DNA of 64,000 nucleotides, taken from an uncultured Eubacteriales bacterium (GTDB lineage Bacteria > Bacillota > Clostridia > Christensenellales > Borkfalkiaceae). The first letter of the stretch is position 1; every line of letters starts with the position of its first letter. This document shows, piece after piece, positions 2,866 to 36,608 of the stretch. Location of the stretch: contig CAJLRM010000001.1 of NCBI GenBank assembly GCA_905209085.1, positions 328,289 through 392,288 of the forward strand, in the 5' to 3' direction. The notes beneath the pieces are model-generated. The model was given only the letters and a program-made list of their open reading frames with translations. It made no database searches and was not told where the DNA came from. The translations under genes were made by a program, and so were the position numbers.

Positions 2866-2886
2866 ACTTTTTCCTCCTGAAATTTT

Positions 2887-4389: not shown

Positions 4390-4391
4390 TA

Positions 4392-5912: not shown

Positions 5913-5938
5913 GTATCCTTTTCCTCCTCGTTCTATTT

Positions 5939-7996: not shown

Positions 7997-8021
7997 TGTA
8001 TATTGCCTCCTTCTTTATCAT

Positions 8022-8870: not shown

Positions 8871-8873
8871 GGC

Positions 8874-10643
8874 TTACTTATACATATTTTCGTCGTTGCG
8901 CTTTGCGATTTCCACGGGATCGAACTTCATCTTGTGGTGTACGTCCATCAGTCCGTTGACTTCCTGTTTCACGTCCGTGAGCTGCGTATAGCAAAAGCCC
9001 GCGAACTCGCACGAAAATACGCCCCTATTTAAATTTTCATATCTTTTCAAAAAGCTTTCCACGCAGTTATCCACCGCGTATCCCCACTTTTCCCCGTCCT
9101 TTTCTTCGCCTAAATTCTTGACGCCGTTGAGCTTTAACGCCACCCCGCCGTACTCGGTCATGATCACGGGTTTGTCCGGGTCCAGCGTTTCTCCGAATCC
9201 CATCAGGCGGCGCGCCATCGGGAACAAGTCGTTGAGTTTGTCCTTCGCGTACTTTTCTCCCCATCCGTCGCCCACGGGCGCATAGTCGTGGATGCTGACG
9301 ATGTCCGTTTCCTCCACTTGTTCCCAGCCGTCGTTGGTGCTGACGAGGCGGGAGGAATCCATTGCCTTGGTGAGGTGGTACATGGTGCGGGCATACTCTT
9401 TCTGCCGCTCGTTCGTCAACAGCTTGCGCACCCCCCAGCTTTCGTTTAAGGGCACCCATACGATGACGGAGGGATGATTGTAGAGCTGTTTGACGAGTTC
9501 GATATACTGCGAAGTGTGCAGGCCGATCTCCCGCAGGTTATACTGATAGGCGCTGGGCATTTCCCCCCAGACGAGAAAGCCGAGCTTATCCGCATAGTAA
9601 TAATAATACGGATCCTCCACCTTTTGATGCTTCCGTCCCCCGTTAAAGCCCATTTTCTTGGCGAGGAGAATGTCCTCTTTCAGGCTTTCCGCGCTCGGCG
9701 GCGTCAAATCCGTTTCCTCCCAATAGCCTTGGTCGAGAACGAGCTTTTGATACAGGGGAATGTTATTGAGGAGGATCTTATCCTTTTCCGCGCTTATTTT
9801 GCGGAAGGCGAAATACGTGTCCACCTCGTCCACCGTTTCGCCGTTTAAGGTAAGTTCCATTTTCAGATCGTAAAGATTGGGACGCTCCACCGACCAGAAG
9901 TGGATCTCGTCGATGCTGTCCTCTTCCTTGATCCAGACGTTGATTCTTTCGTCCCGTTCGGACAGGGAACAATACTGCACCTTTACCCGCTGTCCCTGAT
10001 AGGAAACGGTGAGTTTCACGCCGTCGTAGCGCCCCTGCCCCTCGAAATCCACCGAAATGCAATTGGCGTCGATATTCGGAGTGATGAGGGCGGAGCGGAT
10101 ATGCCCCTCGCCTACTTTTTCCAGCCAGACGCTCTGCCAGATGCCCGAACTCGCCACGTACCAGCAGCGGCTCGGCTCCCTTTTCCAAAACTGCTTGCCG
10201 CGGGGCTGCGACGTGTCGTAACGATCGGTGACTTTTACGGTGAGCACGTTCTCGTCTTGAAGATAGTCTGTCACATCGAAAGAAAAATAGGTATAGCCGT
10301 TGACGTGCCCGCCGACATAGGTCCCGTTCAGCCAAACGTCCGCCTTATAATCGACGGCGTTGAAGCTCAGCAATACCCTGCCCCCCTTCAAAGCGTCCTC
10401 TAACGCAAACGTCCGCCTGTACCACATCACTTCGTGCTGCTCGTCCAGTCCCAGTCCGCTCGCCTTGCTCTGATAAGTAAACGGTACGTTTATCCGCATA
10501 TCGAACGGTTCTTCCCTTTCATAAAATTTTTCGGCTACGCCGCGTTCCTCGTCGTCGAAACAAAATCCCCAGCTTCCGTTGAGATTTTGCCAAAATTTTC
10601 TCTGAAATTGCGGTCTTGGATATTCCGTCCTGGTGAATGCCAT
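8874..10643 (-). CDS. Glycoside hydrolase family 2 enzyme (beta-galactosidase/beta-glucuronidase/mannosidase-like), cytoplasmic.
   Basis: 589 aa. The N-terminus EYPRPQFQRKFWQNLNGSWGF is the hallmark GH2 sugar-binding domain start. There is no signal peptide. Confidence 0.7.
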   Translation of the reverse strand: MAFTRTEYPRPQFQRKFWQNLNGSWGFCFDDEERGVAEKFYEREEPFDMRINVPFTYQSKASGLGLDEQHEVMWYRRTFALEDALKGGRVLLSFNAVDYKADVWLNGTYVGGHVNGYTYFSFDVTDYLQDENVLTVKVTDRYDTSQPRGKQFWKREPSRCWYVASSGIWQSVWLEKVGEGHIRSALITPNIDANCISVDFEGQGRYDGVKLTVSYQGQRVKVQYCSLSERDERINVWIKEEDSIDEIHFWSVERPNLYDLKMELTLNGETVDEVDTYFAFRKISAEKDKILLNNIPLYQKLVLDQGYWEETDLTPPSAESLKEDILLAKKMGFNGGRKHQKVEDPYYYYYADKLGFLVWGEMPSAYQYNLREIGLHTSQYIELVKQLYNHPSVIVWVPLNESWGVRKLLTNERQKEYARTMYHLTKAMDSSRLVSTNDGWEQVEETDIVSIHDYAPVGDGWGEKYAKDKLNDLFPMARRLMGFGETLDPDKPVIMTEYGGVALKLNGVKNLGEEKDGEKWGYAVDNCVESFLKRYENLNRGVFSCEFAGFCYTQLTDVKQEVNGLMDVHHKMKFDPVEIAKRNDENMYK

Positions 10644-10692
10644 AGTCTATAATCCTCTCTGAAATTTTCTTCATCTTTGCTTTTGCAACTTC

Positions 10693-10721
10693 AATATATC
10701 ATTAAAAAAAGAAAGTGTAAA
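10693..10721 (-). promoter_or_regulatory. Putative sigma70-type promoter for the GH2 gene: TTTACA, 17-nt spacer, TATATT on the minus strand.
   Basis: The -35 lies at 10716..10721 and the -10 at 10693..10698. The start codon at 10643 is preceded by GAGAGGA. Confidence 0.35.
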
Positions 10722-10793
10722 TACATAGTCAGAAAATATTTTTATAATCTACCCCCATTTTAGTAAAATCTTGAATATCCCCCCTTGTCCTCC

Positions 10794-10821
10794 TTGACAT
10801 CTATTTTTTTTATGGTATAAT
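10794..10821 (+). promoter_or_regulatory. Near-consensus sigma70 promoter: TTGACA, 16-nt spacer, TATAAT, driving the ArsR-like gene.
   Basis: TTGACA lies at 10794..10799 and TATAAT at 10816..10821. The RBS AGAGGTG sits 7 nt before the ATG at 10842. Confidence 0.55.
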
Positions 10822-10841
10822 AAGAAAAAAGAGGTGAAATC

Positions 10842-11759
10842 ATGCTGAAAATTATACAGCTTACCTTAAAAGAAGAAAATTCTCTTTTGGAGATCGCGCG
10901 CGCCATCTCCTCTCCCAATCGGCTGGAAATCATCAAATCCTTGAATGTGAAGAGCATGAATATCAAGGAGTTAAGCGAACTTTTGAATCAGCCTATTTCT
11001 TCCACCTCCCTCAACGTGGATATTTTAGAAAGCTGCGGACTCATCAAGACGGAAATGCAGTTTTCGCAGCTCGGGCGTTCCCGCCTGTGCTCCCGCTGCT
11101 GCGACGGCATTTCGGTAGATCTGCAAAACGACGATACGGTGCGGGCGGACGAGATAAAAATTTCTCTCCCAATCGGTTCGTATTTCGACTGTCACGTTCG
11201 TCCCGATTGCGGGATTGCAACGGTCACGGGCAATCTCGGCGTAGATACGGAGAATAATTGTTTTTTCAAGCCCGAGCGTTACAAAGCGGAGCTTATCTGG
11301 TTCAGCAGTGGATATCTCGAATACCGAATCGCAAAAAACGAGATCCCGCCCAATGCGAAAAAAATGGAAATTTCTTTCGAAGCCTGTTCGGAAGCGCCCT
11401 TTTACCGCAATGATTTTAAGTCGGACATTACCCTTTGGGTCAACGATATAGAAATCGGCACTTATACTAGCCCCGGAGATTTCGGGGACAGGCGGGGTAG
11501 GCTGAATCCCGAATGGTGGCCCGATTCCATGACGCAATACGGTGTATTGGTCACCTGGAAAATCAACGATAAAGGCTGTATGCTGGGCGCGAACGAAATT
11601 AATTCCAAAACGTTCGCGGACATAAGGCAAAACGAAAAGGATTACCTTTCTATTAAAATCGGCATCAAAGATAATGCCAAATACAAGGGCGGGATCAATT
11701 TATTCGGAAAGAAATTCGGAGATCACAATCAGGATATTGCGGTAAAATTCAGTTGGTAG
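10842..11759 (+). CDS. ArsR/SmtB-family HTH transcriptional regulator with a ~200-aa C-terminal domain of unknown function.
   Basis: 305 aa. The N-terminus LEIARAISSPNRLEIIKSLNVKSMNIKELSELLNQPISSTSLNVDILESCGLIK is an ArsR-type winged helix. The C-terminal beta-rich domain is unrecognised. It is the first gene of the low-GC island and is convergent with the rhs array. Confidence 0.6.
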   Translation: MLKIIQLTLKEENSLLEIARAISSPNRLEIIKSLNVKSMNIKELSELLNQPISSTSLNVDILESCGLIKTEMQFSQLGRSRLCSRCCDGISVDLQNDDTVRADEIKISLPIGSYFDCHVRPDCGIATVTGNLGVDTENNCFFKPERYKAELIWFSSGYLEYRIAKNEIPPNAKKMEISFEACSEAPFYRNDFKSDITLWVNDIEIGTYTSPGDFGDRRGRLNPEWWPDSMTQYGVLVTWKINDKGCMLGANEINSKTFADIRQNEKDYLSIKIGIKDNAKYKGGINLFGKKFGDHNQDIAVKFSW

Positions 11760-11834
11760 AGAACAGAAACGAAGGGATGGCGCTTTTGGGAAAGAGAGGA
11801 GCGCCGGAATTTAATAAAAGAAAAATATCGCGGC

Positions 11835-11868
11835 AAAAAAGAGACTGAATTCAGCCTCTTTTTTATTT
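11835..11868 (+). terminator. Rho-independent terminator of the ArsR-like gene.
   Basis: An imperfect palindrome GAGACTGAATTCAGCCTC is followed by TTTTTATTTCT. Confidence 0.5.
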
Positions 11869-11879
11869 CTATCCCTCTT

Positions 11880-12250
11880 AATTTTAGCTGTCGTAGCGGT
11901 ACGTCGCTATATTTCCGTATTTCGTCAGTGCTCTTCCCCGCTTCCATTCCAATACGTTTCCACGGTATTCTCCCGGGTTTCCCAATGCGTCGTAGCTGCC
12001 CGCGATACTCACTTCCCGACTCGTATTGTTCACCATGTCGTATTCCGTGATACTCACAAGACGGTTTTTGTTCCCGCTTGCATAATGGTAACTCTCCTTC
12101 TTCTCCTACGTCTTCGAACTATTTGCCTGCGTATACACGTCACCAAGGTTTCCGTCCGCGTCGTAGCTGTAATAGTGATTCTTCCCGATAAACCCGTTTT
12201 CTTCCGACACCAAACGATTGATATCGTCATAGTTGTATGTTACGCTCTTA
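11880..12250 (-). pseudogene. Isolated remnant of the Rhs core. It duplicates the segment encoding ...YTQANSSKTWEKKESYHYASGNKNRLVSITEYDMVNN... and has no start or C-terminus.
   Basis: ~90% nucleotide identity to 17215..17458 and 21765..22130 of the main rhs gene. The antisense ORF 12085..12279 mirrors the antisense ORF 21425..22204. Homology stops abruptly at both ends. Confidence 0.6.
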
Positions 12251-12252
12251 TA

Positions 12253-12296
12253 AAAAACAGAAACGACAGTTATTACTGACGTTTCTGTTTTTATTA
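12253..12296. terminator. Bidirectional intrinsic terminator closing the orphan array.
   Basis: AAAACAGAAACG-(14 nt)-CGTTTCTGTTTT, a perfect 12-bp stem flanked by A- and T-runs. Confidence 0.5.
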
Positions 12297-12332
12297 ATTT
12301 ATTTTCTCTGAATCTATATAAATTAATTTTAT

Positions 12333-12803
12333 TTATTTCTTTTCAATAAAATATAAATCAAGTTCTTTTAACCAATCTTGAATAGTTTTGTTAGTTAGTT
12401 CTCCTAAAAACAATGATTCATAAATGTCCTTTTCCCAATTATTATAAGTAACTTGACATAATACTTTTTTTTCTTTGCGATAAATTAATACAGCAATATG
12501 GTTATTCGAAAACACTAAATAATCAGAAAACCTATTTAAATCAAAGTTTTCAATATCTTTTAACATTTGACATTGATATTTATAATATTCTTTACCAATA
12601 TCAAGAAAATTTGTTTCTTTTATATTACAAATATGATATTTTAAATTATATCCTATTTCATAACGAAACGAATCTTGTTGTATAAAGTAATTATGATTTT
12701 TTATTATAATATTTAATCTTACATCATCTTCCGTAAAAAGATTATCAAAGGCCTTTTGAATCGTAAAATAAACATTTTGGGTCAATTTTAAAGATATCTT
12801 CAT
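12333..12803 (-). CDS. Putative immunity protein for the orphan toxin 12807..13982.
   Basis: 156 aa, low GC. It starts 3 nt after the toxin stop, has no signal peptide and no recognised domain. Position and size fit a polymorphic-toxin immunity gene. Confidence 0.5.
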   Translation of the reverse strand: MKISLKLTQNVYFTIQKAFDNLFTEDDVRLNIIIKNHNYFIQQDSFRYEIGYNLKYHICNIKETNFLDIGKEYYKYQCQMLKDIENFDLNRFSDYLVFSNNHIAVLIYRKEKKVLCQVTYNNWEKDIYESLFLGELTNKTIQDWLKELDLYFIEKK

Positions 12804-12806
12804 ATT

Positions 12807-13982
12807 TTACTTCCTAAATCTAAAATACTTTCTCGCGATATTTTTCATTTTCTCGGTCAAATCAGAAAATTTCCTAACATGACCATGATAAAGTGAAACT
12901 TCTTTTCCATCAATTATTTTAATCTGTGTTCTATCTAAAACTACTAATTGATCATTAGAAAAACCGACTCTTCTTGGAGAATCCGATGAAATTAAATAGG
13001 AATTATCCAAAGCAGCTTGCCCATCAATTGGCTTTGGACTTTTAACACTATTTCCTGTCGAAGTATGATATGGGGCATCTTCATACACGCCATGTTCATA
13101 AGTATAACAATTTTTATTATGAACGCAAACACCTGTTCCGACATAATAGGTATGGAAATCTTCTACTTCAAAGTTATACGTCGTCTGCGCATTATCGTAA
13201 TGCTTGCTTTTTACGCTTTCTATTATACCATATCTTCCGTCCCAAAGTAATACTTTATCTCCTTCTTTTAGTTCTTCCGCACTCCTCCATTCCTTCTTTT
13301 CGGGCAAATAATACTTATGTCCACTAGTACTTTCGATCTCTTCTCCGTTCACTTTCACGATTGTCCATTCTTTACTTTCGTTTCGGAAGAGTCTTACTAC
13401 TTCTTTATACGCCTGTTTCCCCGTTTCTTCGTCGTATGCGAGTACTTTATCTCCGACTTCTACCTCCTCGATATTCTTGTACCCGTCCTCCGTCTTTACT
13501 TTTGTTCCCGCTATAAAACATTTTCCTGGATTACATTCCCCGCCTTGGCTGTTCGGGAGTTTTTCTCCTGTCACCCTGTTCTGCGCCGACGTCCGCAGCG
13601 CTTTCTTCCCCGCTACCTTCAATGTCGCCTGCAACGCCTTGAACGCCTGCAATACCGCGATTGCCGACAACACCACGTCCACGACCGCAATCACCACAAA
13701 TAGCAGATTTAGCCAGCTTGGCTCCTTGATAAACGCACGCACCGCCTCTATCAGTCCGTATACCGCCAATCCTAAAAACACTAACGACACTACCAGCCCG
13801 ATAATCGCGCCGATTAAGTGCCCGCTCGGGTCCGCATGATTTACGGGATTATTCAGACAGTAGCTGTATAGATTCTGTCCCCCAATCGTCGTCAGGTATT
13901 CGCCTGATACTACCCCTACATTATCCGCATTGATAAAACGTCTTATCTCCGCGTCATAGTATCGACTCTGCAAATAATACAA
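12807..13982 (-). CDS. Orphan Rhs C-terminal cassette: Rhs core end (DPxGL), TM helix pair, Hint domain, then a ~100-aa toxin (possible HNH/EndoVII-fold nuclease).
   Basis: 391 aa. NPVNHADPSGHL is followed by IGAIIGLVVSLVFLGLAVYGL...VIAVVDVVLSAIAV. The Hint domain runs CFIAGTKVKTEDGYKNIEEVEVGDKVLAYDEETGKQAYKEV ... EDFHTYYVGTGVCVHNKNC. The toxin contains SLYHGHVRKF. The first codon is TTG (Leu in the main gene). In-frame Rhs-core homology continues up to ~14093 with no ATG or RBS. Confidence 0.7.
   Translation of the reverse strand: MYYLQSRYYDAEIRRFINADNVGVVSGEYLTTIGGQNLYSYCLNNPVNHADPSGHLIGAIIGLVVSLVFLGLAVYGLIEAVRAFIKEPSWLNLLFVVIAVVDVVLSAIAVLQAFKALQATLKVAGKKALRTSAQNRVTGEKLPNSQGGECNPGKCFIAGTKVKTEDGYKNIEEVEVGDKVLAYDEETGKQAYKEVVRLFRNESKEWTIVKVNGEEIESTSGHKYYLPEKKEWRSAEELKEGDKVLLWDGRYGIIESVKSKHYDNAQTTYNFEVEDFHTYYVGTGVCVHNKNCYTYEHGVYEDAPYHTSTGNSVKSPKPIDGQAALDNSYLISSDSPRRVGFSNDQLVVLDRTQIKIIDGKEVSLYHGHVRKFSDLTEKMKNIARKYFRFRK
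13385..13735. repeat. Copy 1 of a ~350-bp direct repeat encoding the TM-helix pair plus the Hint N-half.
   Basis: Near-identical to 15180..15530 and 19705..20060. The antisense ORFs 13317..13703, 15115..15501 and 19582..20001 share ...YYFFIRLFPRFFVVCEYFISDFYLLDILVPVLRLYFCSRYK.... Confidence 0.6.
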
Positions 13983-14190
13983 CTTCGTGTCTTCGTCGTA
14001 ATAATAGCCCTTATACCGGAACGGATTGACCCGACCTATATGACTATTATATAACTCTTTCTCCGTGATGTCAATACCCTCTTCGTTATATACAATAATA
14101 AATAAAAGTGTTGCAATATCATAAATATCACAACACTTTTACTTATTAAGTTTTCATTATATGATTTAATTATATTACTGAAGTGTTATT

Positions 14191-14589
14191 TTAATCTTTA
14201 ATTTCACTTAACTCAAAATCTACTGCACTTATCTCTAGAATATTATCTCTTAAGTCAACAATAAAATGTCTAGACTCTTTCATAAAGGATGCATCTTCAT
14301 CATTTTCTTTAAGTGCTTTTTTAAGTTGCATAATCCATTCTGAATTTTCCACCTCAAGAATATGCCTTTGATATATTCCCAACTCAAAGCTTTCTCTAAT
14401 AAGCAAAATATCTTTGTCAAAACAATCAGCCGTTGTTATTTTGAGTGCTTGATATGGTTTGAATACCATTCTATACCGATTTTCATTAACATCATCTAAC
14501 TCTATAACTATCACATTTTCCTCAATCGATATGTGTTCTAAAGGTACATTATTAATTATAAAAGATTTATTAATTATTTTTGCTTTCAT
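14191..14589 (-). CDS. Putative immunity protein for the orphan toxin 14593..15495.
   Basis: 132 aa, acidic, low GC. It starts 3 nt after the toxin stop. Confidence 0.5.
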   Translation of the reverse strand: MKAKIINKSFIINNVPLEHISIEENVIVIELDDVNENRYRMVFKPYQALKITTADCFDKDILLIRESFELGIYQRHILEVENSEWIMQLKKALKENDEDASFMKESRHFIVDLRDNILEISAVDFELSEIKD

Positions 14590-14592
14590 TTT

Positions 14593-15495
14593 TTACCTCA
14601 ATCTTATAGATCTTCCACCATTTATAGTTGTAAACTTCCAAGCCAGTTCTCGTACAATATTGGGTGCTGAAGGGTTTACCCACCTAACATTTATTTGACT
14701 CATACCAGCTTGCTTAAAAGCATAGAGCCTACGATTATCTAGAGTAAAAATTTTTCCGTCCTGTTCAAATACTCTTATAGCGGGAACATCATCTGCTGTA
14801 ATAGAACCATTTTTCAATCCAGTTATCATATCATCCACCGAACGTCCATCACTAAATTTGCGACCGATACTATCTTGTGTGTAATAAATATCATTTGGAT
14901 CAAGTTGGCAAGTATTATGAACCAATACGTCATTTTCGGTGACATAGTAAGTATGGAAGTCTTTTACTTCAAAGTTGTACTTCGTTTCCGCCTTTGCCAG
15001 CTCTTCTTTCTCTATCTTCTCTATCTTTACCTGGCTTCCGTCCGAAAGCGTCAATTTATCTTCTTCCGTTAAATCTTTCGCTTCTACGAATCCTTTTCCC
15101 TCTACATAAAACCGATGCCCTCCCGTACATACGATCTCTTCCCCTTCCACAAATACATGATACCATTCGTCCGTTTTTCCTCGGAAGAGCCTTATTACTT
15201 CTTTATACGCCTGTTTCCCCGTTTCTTCGTCGTATGCGAGTACTTTATCTCCGACTTCTACCTCCTCGATATTCTTGTACCCGTCCTCCGTCTTTACTTT
15301 TGTTCCCGCTATAAAACATTTTCCTGGATTACATTCCCCGCCTTGGCTGTTCGGGAGTTTTTCTCCTGTCACCCTGTTCTGCGCCGACGTCCGCAGCGCT
15401 TTCTTCCCCGCTACCTTCAATGTCGCCTGCAACGCCTTGAACGCCTGCAATACCGCGATTGCCGACAACACCACGTCCACTACCGCGATCACCAC
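14593..15495 (-). CDS. Orphan toxin cassette: TM helix, Hint domain, then a ~105-aa C-terminal toxin of unknown family.
   Basis: 300 aa. Begins MVIAVVDVVLSAIAVLQAFKALQATLKVAGKK with a GTG first codon and no SD. The Hint domain runs CFIAGTKV...DFHTYYVTENDVLVHNTC. The toxin is QLDPNDIYYTQDSIGRKFSDGRSVDDMITGL...FTLDNRRLYAFKQAG. Rhs-frame homology (GLIKAYRAFIKEPSWLNLLF) continues upstream to an in-frame stop at ~15559. Confidence 0.65.
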   Translation of the reverse strand: MVIAVVDVVLSAIAVLQAFKALQATLKVAGKKALRTSAQNRVTGEKLPNSQGGECNPGKCFIAGTKVKTEDGYKNIEEVEVGDKVLAYDEETGKQAYKEVIRLFRGKTDEWYHVFVEGEEIVCTGGHRFYVEGKGFVEAKDLTEEDKLTLSDGSQVKIEKIEKEELAKAETKYNFEVKDFHTYYVTENDVLVHNTCQLDPNDIYYTQDSIGRKFSDGRSVDDMITGLKNGSITADDVPAIRVFEQDGKIFTLDNRRLYAFKQAGMSQINVRWVNPSAPNIVRELAWKFTTINGGRSIRLR

Positions 15496-15530
15496 AAATA
15501 GCAGATTTAGCCAGCTCGGCTCCTTGATAA
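15180..15530. repeat. Copy 2 of the TM/Hint-N direct repeat.
   Basis: See 13385..13735. Confidence 0.6.
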
Positions 15531-15595
15531 ACGCCCTGTAAGCTTTAATTAGCCCAACTTAAAGACTAAATTTAAATTTTTCATTCAAATCAGCC

Positions 15596-15636
15596 AAATC
15601 AAGCGCTGTCATTTCTATTTGACAGCGCTTGATTTT
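15596..15636. terminator. Perfect 14-bp hairpin inside a conserved ~110-bp inter-cassette element (copy 1).
   Basis: ATCAAGCGCTGTCA-TTTCTATTT-TGACAGCGCTTGAT with flanking A/T runs. The whole 15541..15650 element is ~95% identical to 20070..20181. Confidence 0.5.
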
Positions 15637-15650
15637 AAACTCATTCCTCT

Positions 15651-16025
15651 TCAATCAAGATCTTTACAATAGTGGTCATTTAAATCAACAATAGCGCTAC
15701 CCACTTCATTGATTCTGTCCCAAACATTTTCATTCCTTTTTCTCTCCAATAAAGAAAGACATGGCCAACTATCTATAACTAAAGAAAGTGAACTTAACCT
15801 TCTTCTATCTCTTTTTTGTGGAAAATTATCTTCACTTATTTGATTTAACAACTTATTCATTTCAGGAAGCATAAAGTCTTTCACTTCCTTAATTAAGGAA
15901 TTAATATTCCATATTTCTATTGTTTTTTTTGTATGTTTATCAAGTGAATTAAAATAACTTAAAAGTCTTTCTAATTTATTCTTTGTATCAATAACTGCAT
16001 CTTGAAAATTTTGTAATGTATACAT
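15651..16025 (-). CDS. Immunity protein, diverged paralog of 20182..20562, cognate to the orphan toxin 16055..17446.
   Basis: 124 aa. The C-terminal ~30 aa (WPCLSLLERKRNENVWDRINEVGSAIVDLNDHYCKDLD) is almost identical to the C-terminus of the main immunity protein, whereas the N-terminal 90 aa are only ~45% identical. Confidence 0.6.
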   Translation of the reverse strand: MYTLQNFQDAVIDTKNKLERLLSYFNSLDKHTKKTIEIWNINSLIKEVKDFMLPEMNKLLNQISEDNFPQKRDRRRLSSLSLVIDSWPCLSLLERKRNENVWDRINEVGSAIVDLNDHYCKDLD

Positions 16026-16054
16026 CTCCTATCCTCCATCAAAATAATTTTTAT

Positions 16055-17446
16055 TTATAATAACGACTCTAAATTCCAAATATAGAATTGATAGCCACCC
16101 CCTATTTGTCCATTTAAAGGTACTACTTTTCCCTCTATTAACAATGTCCCCTTCTTCAATATAAATTGTGTCATATGCTCAGCCGAATTTGTCGTTGTGT
16201 CCAAAGCCAATGCAGAAATAGGATTACTATATTGATATGGAGTTATCCAATATCCTTTTGGATTGCTTCCACTATAATATCGATAAACTATTATATCTCT
16301 TTTTGCTATGCTTACTGTCGCGTCATCACCAAATCCTTTTAATACTTGTTCATGATACTGTTTTGGCACATATTTGTCAAGATATTCTTGAACAGACATA
16401 TTCACTTTTTGTGTAGAAGAAGTTTTAATAAACTTTTTAGCTTTCGTCACTTTTACAGCAGCCAATAAACCTTTAAAGGCTTTCCATACTGCTATCAATG
16501 ACAAAGCCACGTCTACTACTGCTATTACCAAAAATAGCAAATTCAACCAACTTGGTTCTTTCCAAAACGCTTGACCCGCTTTTATCAGTCCGTATACCGC
16601 CAATCCTAAAAACACTAACGACACTACCAGACCGACAATCGCGCCGATTAAATGCCCGCTCGGGTCCGCATGATTTACGGGATTATTCAGACAGTAGCTA
16701 TATAGATTCTGTCCCCCGAGCGTCGTCAGGTATTCGCCTGATACTACCCCTACGTTATCCGCATTGATAAAACGTCTTATCTCCGCGTCATAGTATCGAC
16801 TCTGCAAGTAGTACAACTTCGTGTCTTCGTCGTAATAATAGCCCTTATATCGGAACGGATTGACCCGACCTATATGACTATTATACATCGTATTCTCTGT
16901 AATGTCAATACCCTCTTCGTTATAGACCCGGCATTTTCCCCACGCGTCGTATTCATATCTCGCCGCGATGCTTCCGTCTTCCTTACATACTCTTACGATA
17001 TTCCCGCTCGTTCCGTATTGGTAATAGTATCTCCCGCTTTCGCTCGTCAGTCCGATGACCTTCTCTCCCGCGTACAGATAGCGATAGTACTTCGTTTCGC
17101 TTCCCTTCGTGATCCGCTCTCCGACTATCTTCCCGCCTACCGTATAATACTGATGCGTCCGTCCGCCTTCCTGCTTCTCCACTCGGATATTATTGCTGTC
17201 GTATCTGTACGTCGCTATGTTCCCGTACTTCGTCAGCACCCTTCCTCTCTTCCATTCCAATACGTTCCCACGGTATTCCCCAGGGTTTCCCAATGCGTCG
17301 TAGCTGCCCGCAATACTCACTTCTCGACTCGTATTGTTCACCATGTCGTATTCCGTGATACTCACAAGACGATTCTTGTTCCCGCTTGCGTAATGATAGC
17401 TTTCCTTCTTCTCCCACGTCTTCGAACTATTTGCCTGCGTATACAC
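16055..17446 (-). CDS. Orphan Rhs core end plus C-terminal toxin. It is a diverged allele of the toxin on the main rhs gene, with DPxGL, a TM pair, then a ~150-aa toxin.
   Basis: 463 aa. From the first codon GTG (Val in the main gene) through ...NPVNHADPSGHLIGAIVGLVVSLVFLGL..KFIKTSSTQKV it is >95% nucleotide-identical to the main gene. The last ~100 codons are only ~70% identical. There is no ATG or RBS. Rhs-frame homology ends 7 codons upstream of the GTG. Confidence 0.7.
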   Translation of the reverse strand: MYTQANSSKTWEKKESYHYASGNKNRLVSITEYDMVNNTSREVSIAGSYDALGNPGEYRGNVLEWKRGRVLTKYGNIATYRYDSNNIRVEKQEGGRTHQYYTVGGKIVGERITKGSETKYYRYLYAGEKVIGLTSESGRYYYQYGTSGNIVRVCKEDGSIAARYEYDAWGKCRVYNEEGIDITENTMYNSHIGRVNPFRYKGYYYDEDTKLYYLQSRYYDAEIRRFINADNVGVVSGEYLTTLGGQNLYSYCLNNPVNHADPSGHLIGAIVGLVVSLVFLGLAVYGLIKAGQAFWKEPSWLNLLFLVIAVVDVALSLIAVWKAFKGLLAAVKVTKAKKFIKTSSTQKVNMSVQEYLDKYVPKQYHEQVLKGFGDDATVSIAKRDIIVYRYYSGSNPKGYWITPYQYSNPISALALDTTTNSAEHMTQFILKKGTLLIEGKVVPLNGQIGGGYQFYIWNLESLL

Positions 17447-17458
17447 GTCCCCAAGGTT
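16300..17458. repeat. ~1.15-kb direct repeat of the Rhs core 3' end (copy in the orphan).
   Basis: >95% identical to 20850..22010. The antisense ORFs 16874..17527 and 21425..22204 are identical for 175 aa. Confidence 0.65.
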
Positions 17459-17506
17459 TCCGTCCGTGTCAATGAATCATATATTAAAAAATGTCACATA
17501 AAAAAT

Positions 17507-17543
17507 AAAAACAGGCTTGTAATATAATTTCAAGCCTGTTTTT
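17507..17543. terminator. Bidirectional intrinsic terminator.
   Basis: AAAAACAGGCTTG-TAATATAATTT-CAAGCCTGTTTTT, a perfect 13-bp stem with T-runs on both strands. It sits between the immunity gene 17644..18144 and the next orphan. Confidence 0.55.
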
Positions 17544-17643
17544 ATGTAAATATTACAAAAATCGCCTTTTATCCAATTTACGCAATAGCCATTTTTATTA
17601 CAAAGAACGCTTTATAATATACTTTACAATAAACAAAAATACT

Positions 17644-26600: not shown

Positions 26601-27055
26601 CAAAGAAGCCGCTTATCCCGTTTGCCGAGCAGCTTCCATTCCACCTTATATCCGTCTTTTTCCAGCGTAAACAGCTTTCCGTTCGTCCGTTTGCCGAATT
26701 TTACCCGAACGTCGCTCTGCCTGTTTTCATAGCCGTCGAAATCGTCTTCTTTTTCAAGGCACGCCGGACAATCGCAAAGAGTATTGTCTATGGCGAGATA
26801 TTTTCCCTCCGTTTCGTCGTAATAGTGCACGGGCTCGGTGAAAATCTGCGCCCGATAGCTGCCGTCGCTCATTCTGAAATGCTTTACGTTCTCCTCGCGC
26901 TTCGCCTCGTCCTCAAAGAGCACGATAGGCGCGTCTTTATTTTTCTTTAAAGCTACTTCGTCGTATACCTGCCCCTCCGATTCTTCAAGAATTTCCTCGG
27001 AAGCAAGTTCTTCGTTTACGTTTTCTTCCATGTTTTTAAATTTAATGGTTCCCAT
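20603..27055 (-). CDS. rhs: RHS-repeat polymorphic toxin, 2150 aa. It has an N-terminal domain without a signal peptide, a DNRLRE-like domain, a CBM-like insert, YD/RHS repeats, an Rhs core ending in DPxGL, a TM helix pair and a ~150-aa C-terminal toxin.
   Basis: - Multiple YD repeats and core hallmarks are present: YDAWG, YYLQSRYYDAEIRRFINAD, NPVNHADPSGHL.
- C-terminal to DPSGHL come two hydrophobic helices and the toxin (...VYRYYGNNNPIGHWVTPNQY...).
- The ATG at 27055 has an AAGGAAAAA RBS.
- GC declines from ~48% at the 5' end to ~33% at the 3' end. Confidence 0.9.
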   Translation of the reverse strand: MGTIKFKNMEENVNEELASEEILEESEGQVYDEVALKKNKDAPIVLFEDEAKREENVKHFRMSDGSYRAQIFTEPVHYYDETEGKYLAIDNTLCDCPACLEKEDDFDGYENRQSDVRVKFGKRTNGKLFTLEKDGYKVEWKLLGKRDKRLLCDALNDSCAFLPNGKQRSAETKLSDEIRYNDIAPGTDLQYILSPKRIKENIIVRERQDSYEYKFELKLKNLNVELSEDGQRLELFIQKIDEESGALGKETIFTIPMPYMFDADGKKSGEVTYELERLSGNKFIFSVIADENWINAEGRAFPVTIDPVIETKQKWDSNFCLSRKVTNQKNNKGEYIIDDSGYNCVGDDGYGMFRSYLKFKLPNFEGRKILEATLSLYQIGFDGNVNNPGYFDIHKVTSNWNENTTFKWDNCPSFDNKIYSRVRYSTKKYNTLKIDITKLAKEWENNPNYGLMMKDSFEQQYCDFFSFHNEKTAEDDSEIPQLTINYVENRCRVSDEYQVNNIKRAGTHMVDLWTGRNRLVHEDAGFEDNERLSLSVSHVYNILDKAASYIKTSRNNYTPDLGVGRGWKLNLQQFLFKINTAANGYTDSIGFLYIDQNGDEIVFSESKKWKAVYDGAGNVTDVVYATEYLDEQGKKLRCFETDGELRIKDDKETTLYFRNNELYKIIDRNGDYILLEKGACDGKISKVSDSTGHWATFAYNSLCCLNKITFSDGKVFSYTYDSFGRLTKIGYPDGSESEFHYGEGADSYSLTSVRDCSGYRLKIGYTNGKATSLKDFASNKEISAAGVTAYTAGDGGVSSYSTYKGVVYEKEGKEIVIKYENNTTKVITENGYADNYQWSDSGFCECIYQTKNELNASANKKYVTDVSKYKNFNLFDTYEVRPLALAKNFLKNGSFEGLSDCLEWVPVDETSANRYYGVSVDGNYSLKIQSSYTQKRQLCQTVYASQLKLSKGEGLLLSGYAKADSLPTSGANTSNGTTQDKYSTFSLLAKLIYTDGTSETTEVNFDPFKTDWQFAVKGIVVNDPSKLQRIEVYIDYSYNNGAAYFDRISLTKGNAVYTKGLPRFYTNRDMKTYDISELVGIEYKDNDHIFHKYESVSVKDRKKNYLDILAMQQNPDLIIIDGEVHDGGAEPKRTMLTFKKEGESEKKYSLFDIEYAASGITEIVNKSGRIRLYKRRDDNVERTEFISDDKASFAMESEYDASGRLIKETDFRGVVKEYTYSNASKYNNVTKEKTHYANGVNKTLIHRQSYTNNEYIRNTYDERGYDEDGSELYTTTNYNASSENLSSVKLPNGQTVQYSYDKTNTYLLGITTSVSVRSTPGGSVRTQTVGVNYSYNLGYLTSIDTGANGVNYEYAYDGFGNALKTYVNGEEVVAVKSYKDSTYSSTDESTYDYEEVVLGNGTAIKEIYNKKGGLICRKIKTQTGTVNGEAVYGEEVESYRVYYKTDEHGEELDEIDQTIDKMPAIDLGTPTDAKKWYYHRYNYKENGEFDYSTLSSSEGGVEYRSELDEGGRVIKEKYTLSGLSLNHSYQYEYEKNGEGEVIPDNRIKEIRMYDKAEGTSAVDTLTLKYDELGRLTKEGLKPETSSSAEYFYESYGYKNRLGKNSCNCTYQEGSTNYLSTIQYRCKNVYGTESADYDKNGNIKKITDANKSVTYSYDDINRLVSEENGFIGKNHYYSYDADGNLGDVYTQANSSKTWEKKESYHYASGNKNRLVSITEYDMVNNTSREVSIAGSYDALGNPGEYRGNVLEWKRGRVLTKYGNIATYRYDSNNIRVEKQEGGRTHQYYTVGGKIVGERITKGSETKYYRYLYAGEKVIGLTSESGRYYYQYGTSGNIVRVCKEDGSIAARYEYDAWGKCRVYNEEGIDITENTMYNSHIGRVNPFRYKGYYYDEDTKLYYLQSRYYDAEIRRFINADNVGIVSSEYLTTIGGQNLYSYCLNNPVNHADPSGHLIGAIIGLVVSLVFLGLAVYGLIKAGQAFWKEPSWLNLLFLVIAVVDVALSLIAVWKAFKGLLAAVKVTKAKKFIKTSSTQKVDMSVQEYLDKYVPKQYHEEVLKGFGDDAVVSMAQKDIKVYRYYGNNNPIGHWVTPNQYANPISALALDSTQNSAEHMATYILKKGTLLIEGKVIPLNGQLGGGYQYYIAILKNALI
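20850..22010. repeat. ~1.15-kb direct repeat of the Rhs core 3' end (copy in the main gene).
   Basis: See 16300..17458. Confidence 0.65.
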
Positions 27056-27073: not shown

Positions 27074-28135
27074 TTAATTGTTTTTTAATTTGATTTCCAG
27101 TATCTGCGGCTTATCATAATTGTCGCCCGTAGATACCGCGCTGACGCCTTTTTCCTGCCCGCTCTTTATGACGAACCCGGAATTTCGCGGCTCATGCAGT
27201 CTTAAAATATCCCGTAGGATCTCGCTCACATCCATCCTTTCATAGCGGCGGCTGCGCCTCGCCGTATACAACAAGCGGGAAAAAGCGGTCTTCGTGTTCC
27301 AAGTCGACGCGAAACTGCACCAAGGCGCGTCCATTTTATAGCCGTCCAGCCTGCATTCTCCCCCCCATTTCGGCAAATACAACGTCGCTTCTTTGACCCG
27401 ATAAAAATTCAGATCGGCGAAAAGCGTTGTGTCGAAACGCGAATACAGCCATTGTTCCCCGTATTCTTCGGTATTTCCCAAAAATGCGGCGCCGCCGAAC
27501 GCATTATTTTCGTCGGGAAGTTTCGACGCTACCGTGGTATCGAGCACCAGTTTCGGCGCGTACAGAGCGATCTCGAAAAGAATTTCTGTCGCCGCGGCGC
27601 TTTCCACCGTCATTTCAAAGGCTTTTTCTCCCCTCTTCACCCCGTTTACCCGCAGCGGACAAACGCCGCCGCCCGTTTTCCCTATTATCCCGTTCACGCT
27701 CAAAAATGGAGTAAACTCCTCCCGCATCAGCGCGAAACACCCCGCGCTTTCCCGAACGGTTCTTTCCGAACTCGTTTCCAGCGAAAATTTCGTCTTGCTT
27801 TTACCGCAGACGACCGCGATTCCGTTAAACGTCGGCTCTATCGATACGTCGTCCGCAAACGCAATCTCGGCGCTGCCGTAATCGTTGCAAAGGATGACGT
27901 TTTCCTCTGTGGCGGCAATTTCGGCATTGATTCCCTGAAAACGATAGCGCCCGTTTTCTTTCCGCCATTTCGGCAACAGGAGCTTCCCTTCTTTCGAATA
28001 TACGGGCACGCTGCAATAATACGCCGTGATCCCGTCCTCTTCCTTTACGAGCACCCGATAGGGATTCGTGTTTCTCTTTTCTATTTTTAAATTTTCCTCA
28101 CCGCGAATGCGGCGGATCTCCCTTAAAATGTCCAT
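27074..28135 (-). CDS. Hypothetical cytoplasmic protein, paralogous to residues ~50-480 of the downstream Rhs protein, including its DNRLRE-like domain.
   Basis: 353 aa. EDGITAYYCSVPVYSKEGKLLL resembles Rhs SDGSYRAQIFTEPVHYYDETEGKYLAI. WLYSRFDTTLFADLNFYRVKEATLYLPKW resembles Rhs GMFRSYLKFKLPNFEGRKILEATLSLYQ. Its stop lies 18 nt before the rhs ATG. Confidence 0.5.
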   Translation of the reverse strand: MDILREIRRIRGEENLKIEKRNTNPYRVLVKEEDGITAYYCSVPVYSKEGKLLLPKWRKENGRYRFQGINAEIAATEENVILCNDYGSAEIAFADDVSIEPTFNGIAVVCGKSKTKFSLETSSERTVRESAGCFALMREEFTPFLSVNGIIGKTGGGVCPLRVNGVKRGEKAFEMTVESAAATEILFEIALYAPKLVLDTTVASKLPDENNAFGGAAFLGNTEEYGEQWLYSRFDTTLFADLNFYRVKEATLYLPKWGGECRLDGYKMDAPWCSFASTWNTKTAFSRLLYTARRSRRYERMDVSEILRDILRLHEPRNSGFVIKSGQEKGVSAVSTGDNYDKPQILEIKLKNN

Positions 28136-28148
28136 ATTCTTCTCACGC

Positions 28149-28715
28149 TTATCGGCCGTCTTCCCCTTCCAAAGTCAAAGCGACGATGTGCATCAACATA
28201 TTGTCGGGAAAAACAATCTCCCGCACCCGCTCTTGTTTTTCGAGGCTGCAAACGCAGTGATGAAAATAGAAAGGGTGCTTCACCGCGCCCGAGGAGAGAA
28301 AAATTTTCGCGGTACGGACGGCGCTGTACTGAAACATAAAATGCGTGAAAATATCCGCATCCCAGCCATGCGACCAATCGGGCACGGCAACGCGCACCGT
28401 TTCTTCGCCGCCGTCCCCGCAGACGACGGTGAAATTTTCGCAGGTATCTCCCCAATGCGAAAATCCGATAAAATGCAGTTTTTTCGCTTCCGCATCCGCT
28501 TTTACTCTCTGCCTGTCGCACAAGACGTTGTCGAAATTTGAATCCGCGAATCGAAATTCCACCCCGTCGATCGTTTCCTCGCCCCGCAGAGAAAAATTCG
28601 CCTGTAAAATGCAGATATTTTCCAGTCCGTACTCCTCCTCGGTCGGGGGCAGGGAAGCGTACACCAATTTGTGATTGAGCCACGGCGAAAGATCGACCCT
28701 TTCAAATCTTTTCAT
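28149..28715 (-). CDS. Hypothetical 189-aa protein (MKRFERVDLSPWLNHKLVY...), translationally coupled to the upstream BtrH-like gene.
   Basis: The internal ATG at 28715 overlaps the upstream TGA as ATGA. The N-terminal 146 codons of the long ORF 28149..29153 overlap that upstream gene, so the internal start is taken. It is Cys/His/Trp-rich (FIGFSHWGDTCENFTVVCGDGGEE) with no recognised family. Confidence 0.5.
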   Translation of the reverse strand: MKRFERVDLSPWLNHKLVYASLPPTEEEYGLENICILQANFSLRGEETIDGVEFRFADSNFDNVLCDRQRVKADAEAKKLHFIGFSHWGDTCENFTVVCGDGGEETVRVAVPDWSHGWDADIFTHFMFQYSAVRTAKIFLSSGAVKHPFYFHHCVCSLEKQERVREIVFPDNMLMHIVALTLEGEDGR

Positions 28716-29650
28716 GCGCACGCCTCCCACAGACAGTCGTAGACTTTCTCTTCCGTTTCCTTTACGGAATCTATCTTTCTCAGAATTCCGTCCCTCCGCG
28801 TGACGGCGAAAGAAAAATTTTCCTGACGCCACATTTTCCACAGCAGGGAAAGGAGATTCGAATAGCCGCTTATCAGAAAGTCCAGCAGGGCGCTCTTTTC
28901 TTTGCTCTGCGAAAACGCCCGCGTTTCGGAAAGACAATAGAGGGAGGTTCTCATGCTTTGCAGATAATCCGTTATCTTCTCCGATTTTTCTTGCAGTTCT
29001 TTTAGGTCGGAAAGAAACATTCTTTTCAGTTCGCCAAGATTCTTTTCCGAGCTTTTTCTCGACGAAAGCAGCCTGTTCAAATCCATTTGCGACCATAGAC
29101 CGAGGGCACCTTTTTGAACTTTCGCCTTGCGTAAAACGCGGCAGGAAAACCACTTTTCGGGATGACGCTTCCGATACATCCCGTTTGCATACAAGAGATT
29201 ATCCAGAGAAATTACTTTCTCCCGAAATTCGTAACTTCCCCTGTAAGCGTGATCCACCACGTTCGCTTCCCGCGTTTTCAGATCGTAGCCGTAACAAAGG
29301 AGAAAGTGCAGTTCATGCCGTATGCCGAACATTTCGGGGCGGCTTTCGAGATAAAAGCAGTCCACCCCGACGATGACCGGCATTCCCTTATCGATCCGCC
29401 TCTTCAACGCTCTCTTAGAGATATTGCGCGATTTGCAGCGATAGCCCGCCGTCCTTTCAAACTCCCGCGCGCCAAGAATCCCCCCTTCGTCCGCCGAAAA
29501 TCCTTCTTTGGCAAAGACCATTGCGTTTAAAAGGAAGAGTTCCCGATCGACGCCTAAGGCGGACAGTCCCGCGATTAACTGATGATAATAGCAGCTTTTC
29601 AGCCAAAATTTGTTGAACGGTTTTACGCCCTCTATTTTATTTTTTATCAT
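28712..29650 (-). CDS. Papain-like / BtrH-N-like Cys-His enzyme, a putative ACP-dependent acyl- or peptidyl-transferase (paralog 2).
   Basis: 312 aa. It has an N-terminal Cys in FWLKSCYYHQLIAGL and a His in RHELHFLLCYGYDL. The same Cys...His spacing occurs in the paralog 31353..32168. The C-terminal half is a helical K/E-rich region. The 5' end overlaps the stop of ACP-1 by 14 nt. Confidence 0.45.
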   Translation of the reverse strand: MIKNKIEGVKPFNKFWLKSCYYHQLIAGLSALGVDRELFLLNAMVFAKEGFSADEGGILGAREFERTAGYRCKSRNISKRALKRRIDKGMPVIVGVDCFYLESRPEMFGIRHELHFLLCYGYDLKTREANVVDHAYRGSYEFREKVISLDNLLYANGMYRKRHPEKWFSCRVLRKAKVQKGALGLWSQMDLNRLLSSRKSSEKNLGELKRMFLSDLKELQEKSEKITDYLQSMRTSLYCLSETRAFSQSKEKSALLDFLISGYSNLLSLLWKMWRQENFSFAVTRRDGILRKIDSVKETEEKVYDCLWEACA

Positions 29651-29873
29651 CCGCTTTTTCCTCCGCCGCCTTTATGACGTCCGCCACCGTGTTCCAAGCT
29701 CCCATATCCAATTCGTCGAGTTCGAATTCGATTTGAAATTCCTCCTCTATCGCCACCAAGACGGCGACGAAGGAAAGACTGTCCAAACTCAACGCCTTTA
29801 ATTCGCTCTCGGGGGAAACGGCTTCTTCCAGGGCACAGCCTTTTTGAATGATGCTTATAATTTTTTCTTTCAT
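29637..29873 (-). CDS. Acyl carrier protein (ACP-1).
   Basis: 78 aa from the internal ATG at 29873 (MKEKIISIIQKGCALEEAVSPESELKALSLDSLSFVAVLVAIEEEF...). LDSLS is the phosphopantetheine attachment serine motif. Its ATG overlaps the ligase stop as ATGA. Confidence 0.7.
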   Translation of the reverse strand: MKEKIISIIQKGCALEEAVSPESELKALSLDSLSFVAVLVAIEEEFQIEFELDELDMGAWNTVADVIKAAEEKADDKK

Positions 29874-36575: not shown

Positions 36576-36578
36576 AAT

Positions 36579-36608
36579 CCGAACATATGTTCGGATTTTA
36601 TTTTATTA
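36579..36608. promoter_or_regulatory. Perfect 12+12 palindrome, a candidate operator or terminator.
   Basis: AAAATCCGAACA-TA-TGTTCGGATTTT, immediately 5' of the zinc-ribbon ORF. Confidence 0.35.

Follow-up and report, generated by a model that had tools for sequence, protein, structure and literature searches.

The subject of this analysis is a 64,000-nucleotide (nt) stretch of DNA from an uncultured Eubacteriales bacterium of the Borkfalkiaceae (assembly GCA_905209085.1, contig CAJLRM010000001.1, positions 328,289 to 392,288), hereafter called the window, and in particular an rhs gene within it and the row of gene cassettes that follows. This is a genuine Rhs polymorphic-toxin locus with an array of orphan modules, a known sort of bacterial warfare locus. 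Very probably it serves as a weapon in interbacterial competition, equipped with a store of exchangeable warheads. The original prediction, made from the DNA letters alone, had placed the locus in an island of low GC (guanine plus cytosine) content and had read it as an Rhs polymorphic-toxin gene with orphan toxin/immunity modules in an array, whose cassettes could be exchanged by recombination. This outline was borne out by an independent assembly of the region and by variation among strains.

An rhs gene followed by an orphan array

All open reading frames (ORFs) of the locus lie on the minus strand. The full-length rhs gene (20603..27055, 2150 amino acids, aa) is followed by five orphan modules with ORFs at 19129..20031, 18165..18743, 16055..17446, 14593..15495 and 12807..13982, here numbered 1 to 5. 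The C-terminal toxin domain (CT) of the main gene is called CT-A and those of the orphans CT-B, CT-C, CT-A', CT-D and CT-E, respectively. On the 3' side of each module is a small ORF (immA, immB, immC, immA', immD and immE at 20182..20562, 18914..19117, 17644..18144, 15651..16025, 14191..14589 and 12333..12803). A naked remnant of the Rhs core, equivalent to aa 1650-1772 of the main protein, is located at the distal end of the island (11881..12249, minus strand) and is 92.7% identical to positions 21740..22108 of the main gene; its frame is broken, leaving two short ORFs only, and it is present in all strains examined. The modules, the small downstream ORFs and the remnant had all been placed exactly in the original prediction. 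Five distinct toxin domains had been counted, which holds for the families and not for the modules: there are six modules, and therefore five families, as orphan 3 carries a diverged allele of the main toxin (76% aa identity between CT-A' and CT-A).

The composition was found to differ from what had been claimed. Instead of about 58%, the GC content of the flanks is 49-56% within approximately 10 kb, and in place of a gradient from 48% to 33% along the rhs gene, the body of the gene is flat at 40-47% with an abrupt step to 31% at the toxin. Self-comparison of the window showed three copies of the core end (13666-14093, 16500-16927 and 21051-21478) with 88-90% identity, and four copies of a repeat comprising the transmembrane (TM) segment and the HINT domain with 72-98% identity. 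In addition, a segmental duplication of 2.3 kb, overlooked earlier, relates 15181-17470 to 19717-22021 at 88.9% identity and reaches from the core 3' end through the TM hairpin, toxin A, its immunity gene and a hairpin into the HINT orphan that comes next, of which it takes in the first ~350 nt. The proposed third repeat family, a 110-bp hairpin element, turned out to consist of unrelated terminator-like hairpins, save one duplicated pair. This pair follows immA (20127..20166, minus strand) and immA' (15596..15635), and the two hairpins are alike because both lie inside the duplicated unit. Terminator-like stem-loops are present after immA, immA', immC, immD and immE and folding indicated a further stem-loop after immB; four of them have a T-run.

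That the repeats might be duplications made during assembly had been named as grounds for giving up the prediction. The copies are 72-98% identical and not 100%, and a contig of 378 kb assembled from a different sample (L158; the contigs and loci used for comparison carry L numbers) has the same array, being collinear with window positions 22803..2333 at 99.9% identity over 20,471 nt. With diverged repeat copies and a collinear second contig, the array is not an assembly artefact.

Different toxins at the same chromosomal site

Contigs of related strains at the same chromosomal site were obtained from several samples by an exact look-up of immE. The locus does vary among these strains, as the original prediction demanded, and different tips are found on the full-length gene at the same site: CT-A in the window and L158, CT-A' in L160 and a canonical TNT domain in L073 and L159. 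The Rhs protein of L160 has 2149 aa, of which the first 1900 are 99.8% identical to the window protein and the last 200 are 100% identical to orphan 3, with immA' directly next to it, and the contig is without the 4551-nt segment 22021..17470. In L159 and L073/L074, the canonical TNT tip is accompanied by a diverged TM hairpin and an 87-aa ORF. The switch is at aa ~1950, at which the identity between the Rhs protein of the window and its orthologue in L073 drops from 96-100% to 22-44%. Downstream, L159 has a full 420-aa cassette of core end, TM hairpin, HINT and CT-D, so the truncated orphan 4 of the window is complete elsewhere. L161 contains an Rhs-core ORF, at least 942 aa long, whose end is 98.5% identical to the orphan-5 cassette, and the core remnant that is naked in the window extends into a complete CT-A' orphan. 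The toxins of orphan 3 (L160, 100%) and orphan 5 (L161, 98.5%) are hence both seen at the end of an Rhs core elsewhere, and these natural variants suggest that orphans can become the expressed tip by recombination.

The variation is not restricted to the tip. Over most of their length the Rhs proteins of the window and L073 are 94-100% identical, with the region of the DNRLRE/CBM96 domain (aa 301-500) at only 20-38%. Since L159 combines the DNRLRE allele of the window with the TNT tip, and L073 combines the other allele with the same TNT tip, the putative binding module and the toxin reassort independently. Two stretches of the YD shell, aa 1051-1150 and 1451-1600 (window 24,0xx-23,6xx and 22,7xx-22,2xx), are just 60-80% identical to L073, which suggests internal mosaic recombination within the shell.

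The distal array and the same flank are shared by L159, L160, L162 and L163 at 99-100% identity, and other assemblies encode single orphan proteins that are 99-100% identical to those of the window. Two contigs have unusual arrangements. L161 (ERZ28563987 scaffold_3682, a 13.9-kb contig) holds ~1.8 tandem copies of a 7.7-kb unit, the result of a genuine amplification or else of a loop in the assembly; the unit is composed of Rhs-core/HINT/CT-E, immE, a fragment of the core that carries CT-A', immA', a HINT orphan bearing a different toxin, and a pair of small ORFs. In L075 (1-263 / 261-2378), a fragment of immA, 100% identical to window positions 20280-20542, abuts the 3' end of immC (window 17749) without a gap; beyond this junction come orphan 3, an ORF of 195 aa that the window does not have and a further fragment of an Rhs core. 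This contig could be an array variant or a chimera.

At least two copies of the core end were present in 65 out of 152 related Rhs loci, with a maximum of seven, so orphan arrays are common in such loci. HINT cassettes are rarer, with one each in 8 of the 152 loci versus four in the window array. Long HINT-cassette arrays do exist elsewhere, as seen in L156 and L157: four or more PT-HINT cassettes form an array in L157, and in L156 (GCA_965646285.1) a gene for a 1675-aa DUF6531-Rhs-TNT protein is followed by more than 15 small ORFs on the same strand, including a PT-HINT/CT-B orphan. When all toxins, the immunity proteins and the TM module were compared by tblastn with 72 Rhs loci of GTDB representatives, no match was obtained save for the upstream partner in L015. 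The species-representative genomes contained no close copy of the rhs gene, the best matches being 27-48% identical and located in metagenome-assembled genomes (MAGs) of Clostridia and Bacilli from gut and rumen.

DNA homology available for cassette exchange

The repeats had been proposed to allow swapping of the expressed toxin by homologous recombination. Within the window this applies to orphans 3 and 5 and the remnant, whose longest exact tracts shared with the expressed gene are 524, 74 and 58 nt, respectively; it does not apply to orphans 1, 2 and 4, which share at most 13 nt with the expressed gene and match just each other and orphan 5; the homology left to them is that of the TM/HINT part.

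The 2.3-kb duplication is a mosaic. Flanks of 100% identity enclose a stretch over the catalytic part of the toxin and the immunity gene where identity falls to 57-80%, before it returns to 90-100%. The synonymous divergence (dS) is 0.11-0.16 in the flanks, 1.18 in the toxin and 0.75 in the immunity gene, and the ratio of nonsynonymous to synonymous divergence (dN/dS) is 0.15 for the toxin and 0.40 for the immunity gene. On account of this contrast, the toxin and immunity genes appear to be old, selectively maintained alleles amid recently homogenised or exchanged flanks.

The full-length Rhs protein and its upstream partner

The ORF of the full-length rhs gene cannot be extended upstream. The encoded protein consists of an N-terminal region, a DNRLRE/CBM96 domain, a YD-repeat shell, the Rhs-associated core, a PxxxxDPSGH motif, a TM hairpin and the toxin CT-A, in this order. 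YD repeats were recognised by Pfam RHS_repeat (E-value 1.3e-24) and TIGR01643 YD_repeat_2x (E 2.7e-13) and the Rhs-associated core by TIGR03696 (Rhs_assc_core, E 3.4e-19, aa 1852-1951), the latter ending in the motif NPVNHADPSGH at aa 1941-1951 with the aspartate at 1947. The DNRLRE/CBM96 domain, of the carbohydrate-binding type, covers aa ~335-484 (25604..26053, minus strand; DNRLRE_dom E 7.9e-23, CBM96 E 3.3e-13). It was unlisted in the NCBIfam scan of the full 2150 aa and scored 81 bits when a 220-aa segment was scanned alone; long repetitive proteins may conceal domains in such full-length scans. Directly after DPSGH comes a pre-toxin hairpin of two TM helices (21020..21202, minus strand), with hydrophobic peaks at aa ~1956-1969 and ~1992-2008 that are the sole ones of the protein. 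Domain-library scans of the main Rhs protein gave no match to LysM or another wall anchor or to DUF6531.

Upstream of rhs, with its stop 19 nt before the rhs start codon, is the gene of a leaderless accessory protein of 353 aa (27074..28135, minus strand). It contains a weak DNRLRE-like domain at aa 199-337 (NCBIfam DNRLRE_dom, E 4.5e-6, below the cut-off). The pair of partner and rhs genes recurs in L073 and, with 29% identity, in the distant locus L015. The exact partner protein was found on 156 contigs, and the sequence look-up returned no record of the exact main Rhs protein.

CT-A, a predicted divergent NAD(P)+ glycohydrolase

The toxin domain CT-A (20606..20950, minus strand, 115 aa) is, judged by its sequence, an NAD(P)+ glycohydrolase (NADase) toxin of the Tse6/Tne2/TNT type, belonging to a divergent subfamily. 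Just two close homologues were found among 5.8 billion proteins, and a profile search of 1.84 billion representatives brought up 210 relatives, located at the C-termini of varied proteins. Pfam TNT (PF14021) matched 36 of 39 aligned relatives, with a best E-value of 1.9e-10; CT-A of the window itself scored 19.3 bits (E 1.6e-3), which is below the cut-off of 27. In a search of the PDB with the CT-A profile, the top match was a TNT-domain NADase (E 0.035). Arg40, Tyr41 and Gln104, the last one in a GGGxQ motif, are kept in 38-39 of the 39 sequences. CT-A has the fold and the active-site residues (Arg and the Gln of GGGxQ) of TNT/Tse6-type toxins. Its closest structural matches are the antibacterial effectors Tse6, Tne2 and Serratia Rhs1.

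A faint resemblance of the main toxin to ADP-ribosyltransferases had been noted earlier. This was right as to the fold superfamily and the conserved arginine, and wrong as to the family, which is that of the Tse6/TNT NADases. The proposed R-S-E triad was rejected: the column of the S-T in LDSTQ is gapped in 30 of 39 sequences and the glutamate of LLIEGK is present in 20 of 39. The invariant third residue of the family is the glutamine of GGGxQ.

The orphan toxins

The frames of all five orphan toxins are intact, and every orphan begins where the homology breaks off, with neither a ribosome-binding site nor an ATG. The original prediction held that no toxin domain could be confidently assigned to a family. 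Three of the five families were given a clear family or fold, and one is borderline. All homologues found for CT-B to CT-E are C-terminal on PT-HINT or Rhs proteins. Single-sequence searches of the PDB with CT-A, CT-B, CT-C and CT-D yielded chance-level matches only. The PT-HINT domains (PF07591) of orphans 1, 4 and 5 scored 89.2, 91.6 and 91.8 bits, respectively (cut-off 27.7); complete PT-HINT domains begin with CFIAGT and finish with VHN, followed by x-Cys.

Orphan 1 (19129..20070, minus strand) has a 5'-truncated TM hairpin, PT-HINT and CT-B, and its homology begins in the middle of the hairpin, past an in-frame stop. CT-B looks DUF4160-like by sequence, a borderline assignment; DUF4160 was matched by five of the six members of the CT-B family with E-values up to 0.05. 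Pairs of DUF4160 and DUF2442 are candidate toxin-antitoxin systems, described as such a pair in Dickeya (PMC12065111). The motif GGEVNHKTPHAHINW of CT-B, read previously as compatible with an HNH nuclease, lies inside the DUF4160-like match, and no HNH family was found at E-values up to 1. Orphan 2 (18165..18842, minus strand), which is 97.6% identical to 14914-15250, has CT-C behind a PT-HINT domain without its N-terminal block, that is, with neither Cys1 nor the TM segment, and the match covers only profile positions 60-137 (51 bits). CT-C has two homologues, one of which (P0003) is 100% identical and is part of a complete 307-aa TM-HINT protein.

Orphan 3 (16055..17470, minus strand) comprises the Rhs core from aa 1679, the TM hairpin and CT-A', with 92.7% identity to positions 20630-22021 of the main gene. 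Orphan 4 (14593..15536, minus strand) has a 5'-truncated TM hairpin, PT-HINT and CT-D. For CT-D, the searches yielded ~30 homologues. Each forms the C-terminus of a PT-HINT or Rhs protein, and the LDNRRL motif, with N64-R65-R66 inside it, is invariant among them. CT-D has a ParB/sulfiredoxin fold and fits the signature of Tox-ParBL1, described as [ST] plus [NT][RT][RT] by Zhang et al. 2012 (PMC3482391), although sequence searches of Pfam and the PDB, including one with a profile, gave no match. Orphan 5 (12807..14093, minus strand) consists of the Rhs core end from aa ~1860 (88% identical to 21051-21478 of the main gene), the TM hairpin, PT-HINT and CT-E. On the level of sequence, CT-E matches the family of the CdiA-CT of Cupriavidus taiwanensis (PDB 5T87; E 4.4e-7 over 66 residues), with which it shares the motifs PxDGQxxLxNS and YHGHVR. 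SLYHGHVRKF of CT-E, the second motif that had been read as HNH-like, aligns to this YHGHVR, and here too no HNH family appeared at E-values up to 1.

Putative immunity genes

By analogy with other toxin loci of this kind, we infer that the six small ORFs probably encode cognate immunity proteins. Pfam searches with the six gave no credible family. For immA (20182..20562, minus strand, 126 aa), the position and a GGAGG ribosome-binding site point to such a role, and the same applies to immC (17644..18144, minus strand, 166 aa), with its position, a ribosome-binding site and a terminator with a T-run at 17505..17545. The putative paralogue immA' (15651..16025, minus strand, 124 aa) has 58% aa identity to immA with a dN/dS of 0.40, and the two have diverged together with their toxins.

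For the remaining three, the pairing with the toxin recurs in unrelated genomes. In L156, a 78%-identical CT-B is directly followed by a 61%-identical homologue of immB (18914..19117, minus strand, 67 aa). In L153/L154 and L155, CT-D homologues (62% and 51%) are accompanied by downstream homologues (44% and 36%) of immD (14191..14589, minus strand, 132 aa; terminator 14096..14148). A 62%-identical CT-E in L157 is followed by a 39%-identical homologue of immE (12333..12803, minus strand, 156 aa; terminator 12253..12292).

Promoter-like sites in the core ends

A perfect sigma-70 consensus, TTGACA-17-TATAAT (12/12 matches), lies inside the coding sequence of each core end, at 21431..21459, 16880..16908 and 14046..14074 on the minus strand, and is retained in every core-end copy of L073, L074 and L075. 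In the copy of orphan 5 the spacer has diverged and the hexamers are intact. The 5' limit of the orphan homology is situated 17-19 nt upstream of the -35 hexamer. With a promoter-like site at one end and a terminator at the other, every core-end cassette resembles a transcription unit. For rhs genes of Salmonella, experiments have demonstrated internal promoters as well as starts other than ATG (PMC7043789). Weaker promoter-like sites with 11/12 matches were noticed within CT-A (20903..20931) and CT-A' (16352..16380), ~300 nt upstream of the immunity genes.

Proposed mechanism and alternative explanations

If the locus acts as a weapon in interbacterial competition, the YD shell would, by analogy with Rhs and Tc toxins, enclose the toxin, and the aspartyl-protease motif of the core would free it inside the shell. 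The CBM-like domain may attach to the cell surface, either that of the producer or that of the target, and the TM hairpin may aid the passage of the toxin across the target-cell membrane. In HINT cassettes, asparagine cyclisation at the ...VHN junction would free the toxin. Once delivered, CT-A would, as known for its relatives, drain NAD(P)+ in cells without immA. Recombination between core-end repeats could swap the expressed tip, either with deletion of the intervening cassettes or with import of a new tip, by which the former one would be displaced downstream. The orphans lack a start codon; continued expression of immunity would be secured by the core-end promoters and by the ribosome-binding sites in front of the immunity genes.

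Several observations weigh against this reading. There is no sign of a signal peptide in the main Rhs protein, in which the maximum 19-residue Kyte-Doolittle mean is -0.05 in the first 70 aa, and hydropathy likewise gave no hydrophobic N-terminus for the 353-aa partner. The core motif is diverged, with RYYDAEIRRF...ADNVG as opposed to RYYDPxxGRF...DPxG. CT-B scored just below the cut-off for DUF4160 (PF13711; 22.2 bits, E 1.6e-4, cut-off 23), and no family was assigned to CT-C. Having no usable DNA homology, orphans 1, 2 and 4 are not directly swappable in the window strain, and they may be relics, orphan 2 also being without the N-terminal block of HINT. The difference between L160 and the window fits a deletion derivative in L160 and an insertion derivative in the window equally. 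The 7.7-kb internal repeat of L161 may be an assembly loop, and the immA-to-immC junction of L075 may be chimeric. As to the promoter-like sites, the hexamers overlap conserved codons, and a core-end promoter was rejected as a general feature of Rhs genes, since promoter scores were distributed alike in 230 distant core ends and in 182 control windows.

Among the alternatives, it is possible, if somewhat doubtful, that the array is primarily an immunity island, in which the orphan toxins are decaying relics, the immunity genes are kept by selection as protection from the toxins of neighbouring strains and tip switching is rare and incidental. The three orphans without homology to the expressed gene, the truncated HINT of orphan 2, the promoter-like sites upstream of immunity genes and the lack of orphan start codons, next to spacer-separated immA, immB, immC and immA' with good ribosome-binding sites, would all be expected of such an island, and so would the presence of the exact immD (68 contigs) and the exact immE (96 contigs). 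Relics, on the other hand, would hardly be expected to keep all five toxin frames intact, nor CT-A' a dN/dS of 0.15, and the toxins of orphans 3 and 5 are fused to Rhs cores elsewhere, so at least those are used as toxins. A protective role is also compatible with the role as a weapon and the two are not mutually exclusive.

As an extension of the weapon reading, the locus might represent a distinct, leaderless Clostridial class of Rhs systems with three exchangeable modules (CBM96/DNRLRE, TM hairpin and promoter-terminator cassettes) and non-Sec export involving the 353-aa partner. The hairpin would take the toxin through the target membrane, and a cassette framed by promoter and terminator would express immunity at whatever place it arrives. 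This we put forward tentatively and with considerable doubt.

A role within the producer itself, in which the cassettes would work like toxin-antitoxin modules, as reported for Salmonella rhs, with the core-end promoter driving a toxin fragment together with its immunity gene and thereby stabilising the locus or modulating growth, seems unlikely. It would account for the perfect consensus in all three core-end copies and in those of related strains, for a homology limit only 17-19 nt upstream of the -35 hexamer, and it has a precedent in the internal promoters and non-ATG starts of Salmonella rhs (PMC7043789). No convincing ribosome-binding site or start codon was, however, seen past the predicted transcription start, and the product would open with Rhs core residues and the TM hairpin. 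The coincidence of the hexamers with conserved codons and the absence of an enrichment of strong promoters in the 230 distant core ends relative to the controls speak against it as well.

TNT-type NADases kill eukaryotic cells as well. This ability and the presence of the bacterium in human gut metagenome assemblies would suit a Tc-toxin-like, host-directed Rhs protein of the TccC type; such a target is very improbable, considering that the scanned parts of the window hold no TcA/TcB-like partner, that a small downstream ORF co-varies with each toxin, a pattern usual where the producer must protect itself from an antibacterial toxin, and that the closest structural matches of CT-A are antibacterial. 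Finally, a locus made of collapsed or duplicated reads from a mixed population is hardly credible: short-read contigs do often break at the locus (L073 stops 490 nt past the gene) and the junctions of L161 and L075 are suspicious, but the repeat copies differ by 2-28%, L158 is collinear over 20.5 kb, four further contigs share the distal array and flank, and single orphan proteins recur nearly unchanged in other assemblies.

Comparison with known systems

The main Rhs protein most resembles WapA of Streptococcus suis. With WapA of Bacillus subtilis and S. suis WapA-CT1 (PMC12704120) it has in common the YD shell, the core and a polymorphic CT with an immunity gene, and with the S. suis protein also an N-terminal DNRLRE domain and truncated orphan copies downstream. 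It differs in having no Sec signal peptide, LysM repeats or DUF6531 match, in the separate leaderless DNRLRE-like partner of 353 aa and in the TM hairpin between the cleavage motif and the toxin. Owing to the missing Sec signal, it falls outside the definition of WapA on the export feature. The upstream ORFs that were scanned included neither a sortase gene nor a SecF-like one.

The array is similar to the rhs arrays of enterobacteria (E. coli, Salmonella and Dickeya; PMC3150448, PMC3967940) in its 5'-truncated rhs-CT/rhsI modules with core homology, and in both, recombination puts an orphan toxin on the main gene, as represented here by the natural variants L160 and L161. Unlike in enterobacteria, the host is Gram-positive and has no type VI secretion system, three of the five orphans are PT-HINT cassettes without core homology, and the core in the window has no raised GC content compared with the genome.

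In Tse6, as in the Rhs protein of the window, a TM segment is associated with the toxin. CT-A shares the Arg-Tyr and the Gln of GGGxQ with Tse6, Tne2, TNT and the Serratia Rhs NADases (PDB 4ZV4, 6B12, 4QLP and 6XTD; PMC10539506) and, as in the Serratia effectors, is borne on an Rhs protein. It differs from Tse6 and TNT in its score below the Pfam TNT cut-off, in having just two close homologues and in an immunity protein without a known family. The PT-HINT cassettes agree with those described by Zhang et al. 2012 (PMC3482391) in that HINT is directly upstream of a variable toxin and that they occur alone, together with immunity genes. The same paper also lists toxins of the ParB fold and gives HINT and RHS as their partners. 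In the window, by contrast, the HINT cassettes are preceded by a TM hairpin as in the non-HINT tip. CT-E is carried by an Rhs/PT-HINT scaffold in a Firmicute, in contrast to the CdiA filament that carries the 5T87 toxin in a proteobacterium.

Rhs orphan arrays and PT-HINT cassettes are textbook matter, and the value of the present locus is that of a clean natural example in an uncultured human-gut commensal. Different toxins are expressed from the same site, two of them being silent orphans of the window strain, which bears on the way in which strains within one gut species keep each other out. The divergent NADase subfamily, the ParB-fold toxin with its immunity family and CT-C are candidates for biochemistry. 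The lack of a signal peptide raises the question of how 240-kDa proteins exit from a Gram-positive cell.

Genomic surroundings

The island is bordered on one side by an ArsR-like gene with a GH2/glycyl-radical-enzyme cluster behind it and on the other by a small carrier-protein/AMP-ligase cluster. This context is identical in every strain recovered, and the flank proteins were found in MAGs labelled Clostridia or Firmicutes bacterium.

At the distal border, the gene 10842..11759 (plus strand) encodes a 305-aa protein with an ArsR-type helix-turn-helix and a C-terminal part of 230 aa, conserved in all strains, and upstream of it is a perfect consensus promoter with a TG extension (10794..10821, plus strand). 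Directly upstream of the rhs gene pair, the minus-strand cluster 28712..33723 encodes a BtrH_N/peptidase-C39-like protein, an AMP-binding enzyme, a PP-binding carrier and NTP_transf_5, and looks like a small carrier-protein-dependent biosynthetic set. A further gene (33829..34401, minus strand) encodes a 190-aa protein with two predicted TM helices, and a 41%-identical homologue is the direct upstream neighbour of the Rhs gene in L005 (9492-9938), a distant locus. This protein could be an export factor for leaderless Rhs proteins; its identification as a phage-type holin was rejected, with no match in 50,697 phage records and none in Pfam. Outside the locus, the GC content dips at 36001-37000 (42%) and at 56001-57000 (40%), and a 478-aa ORF at 55065..56501 has no Pfam match.

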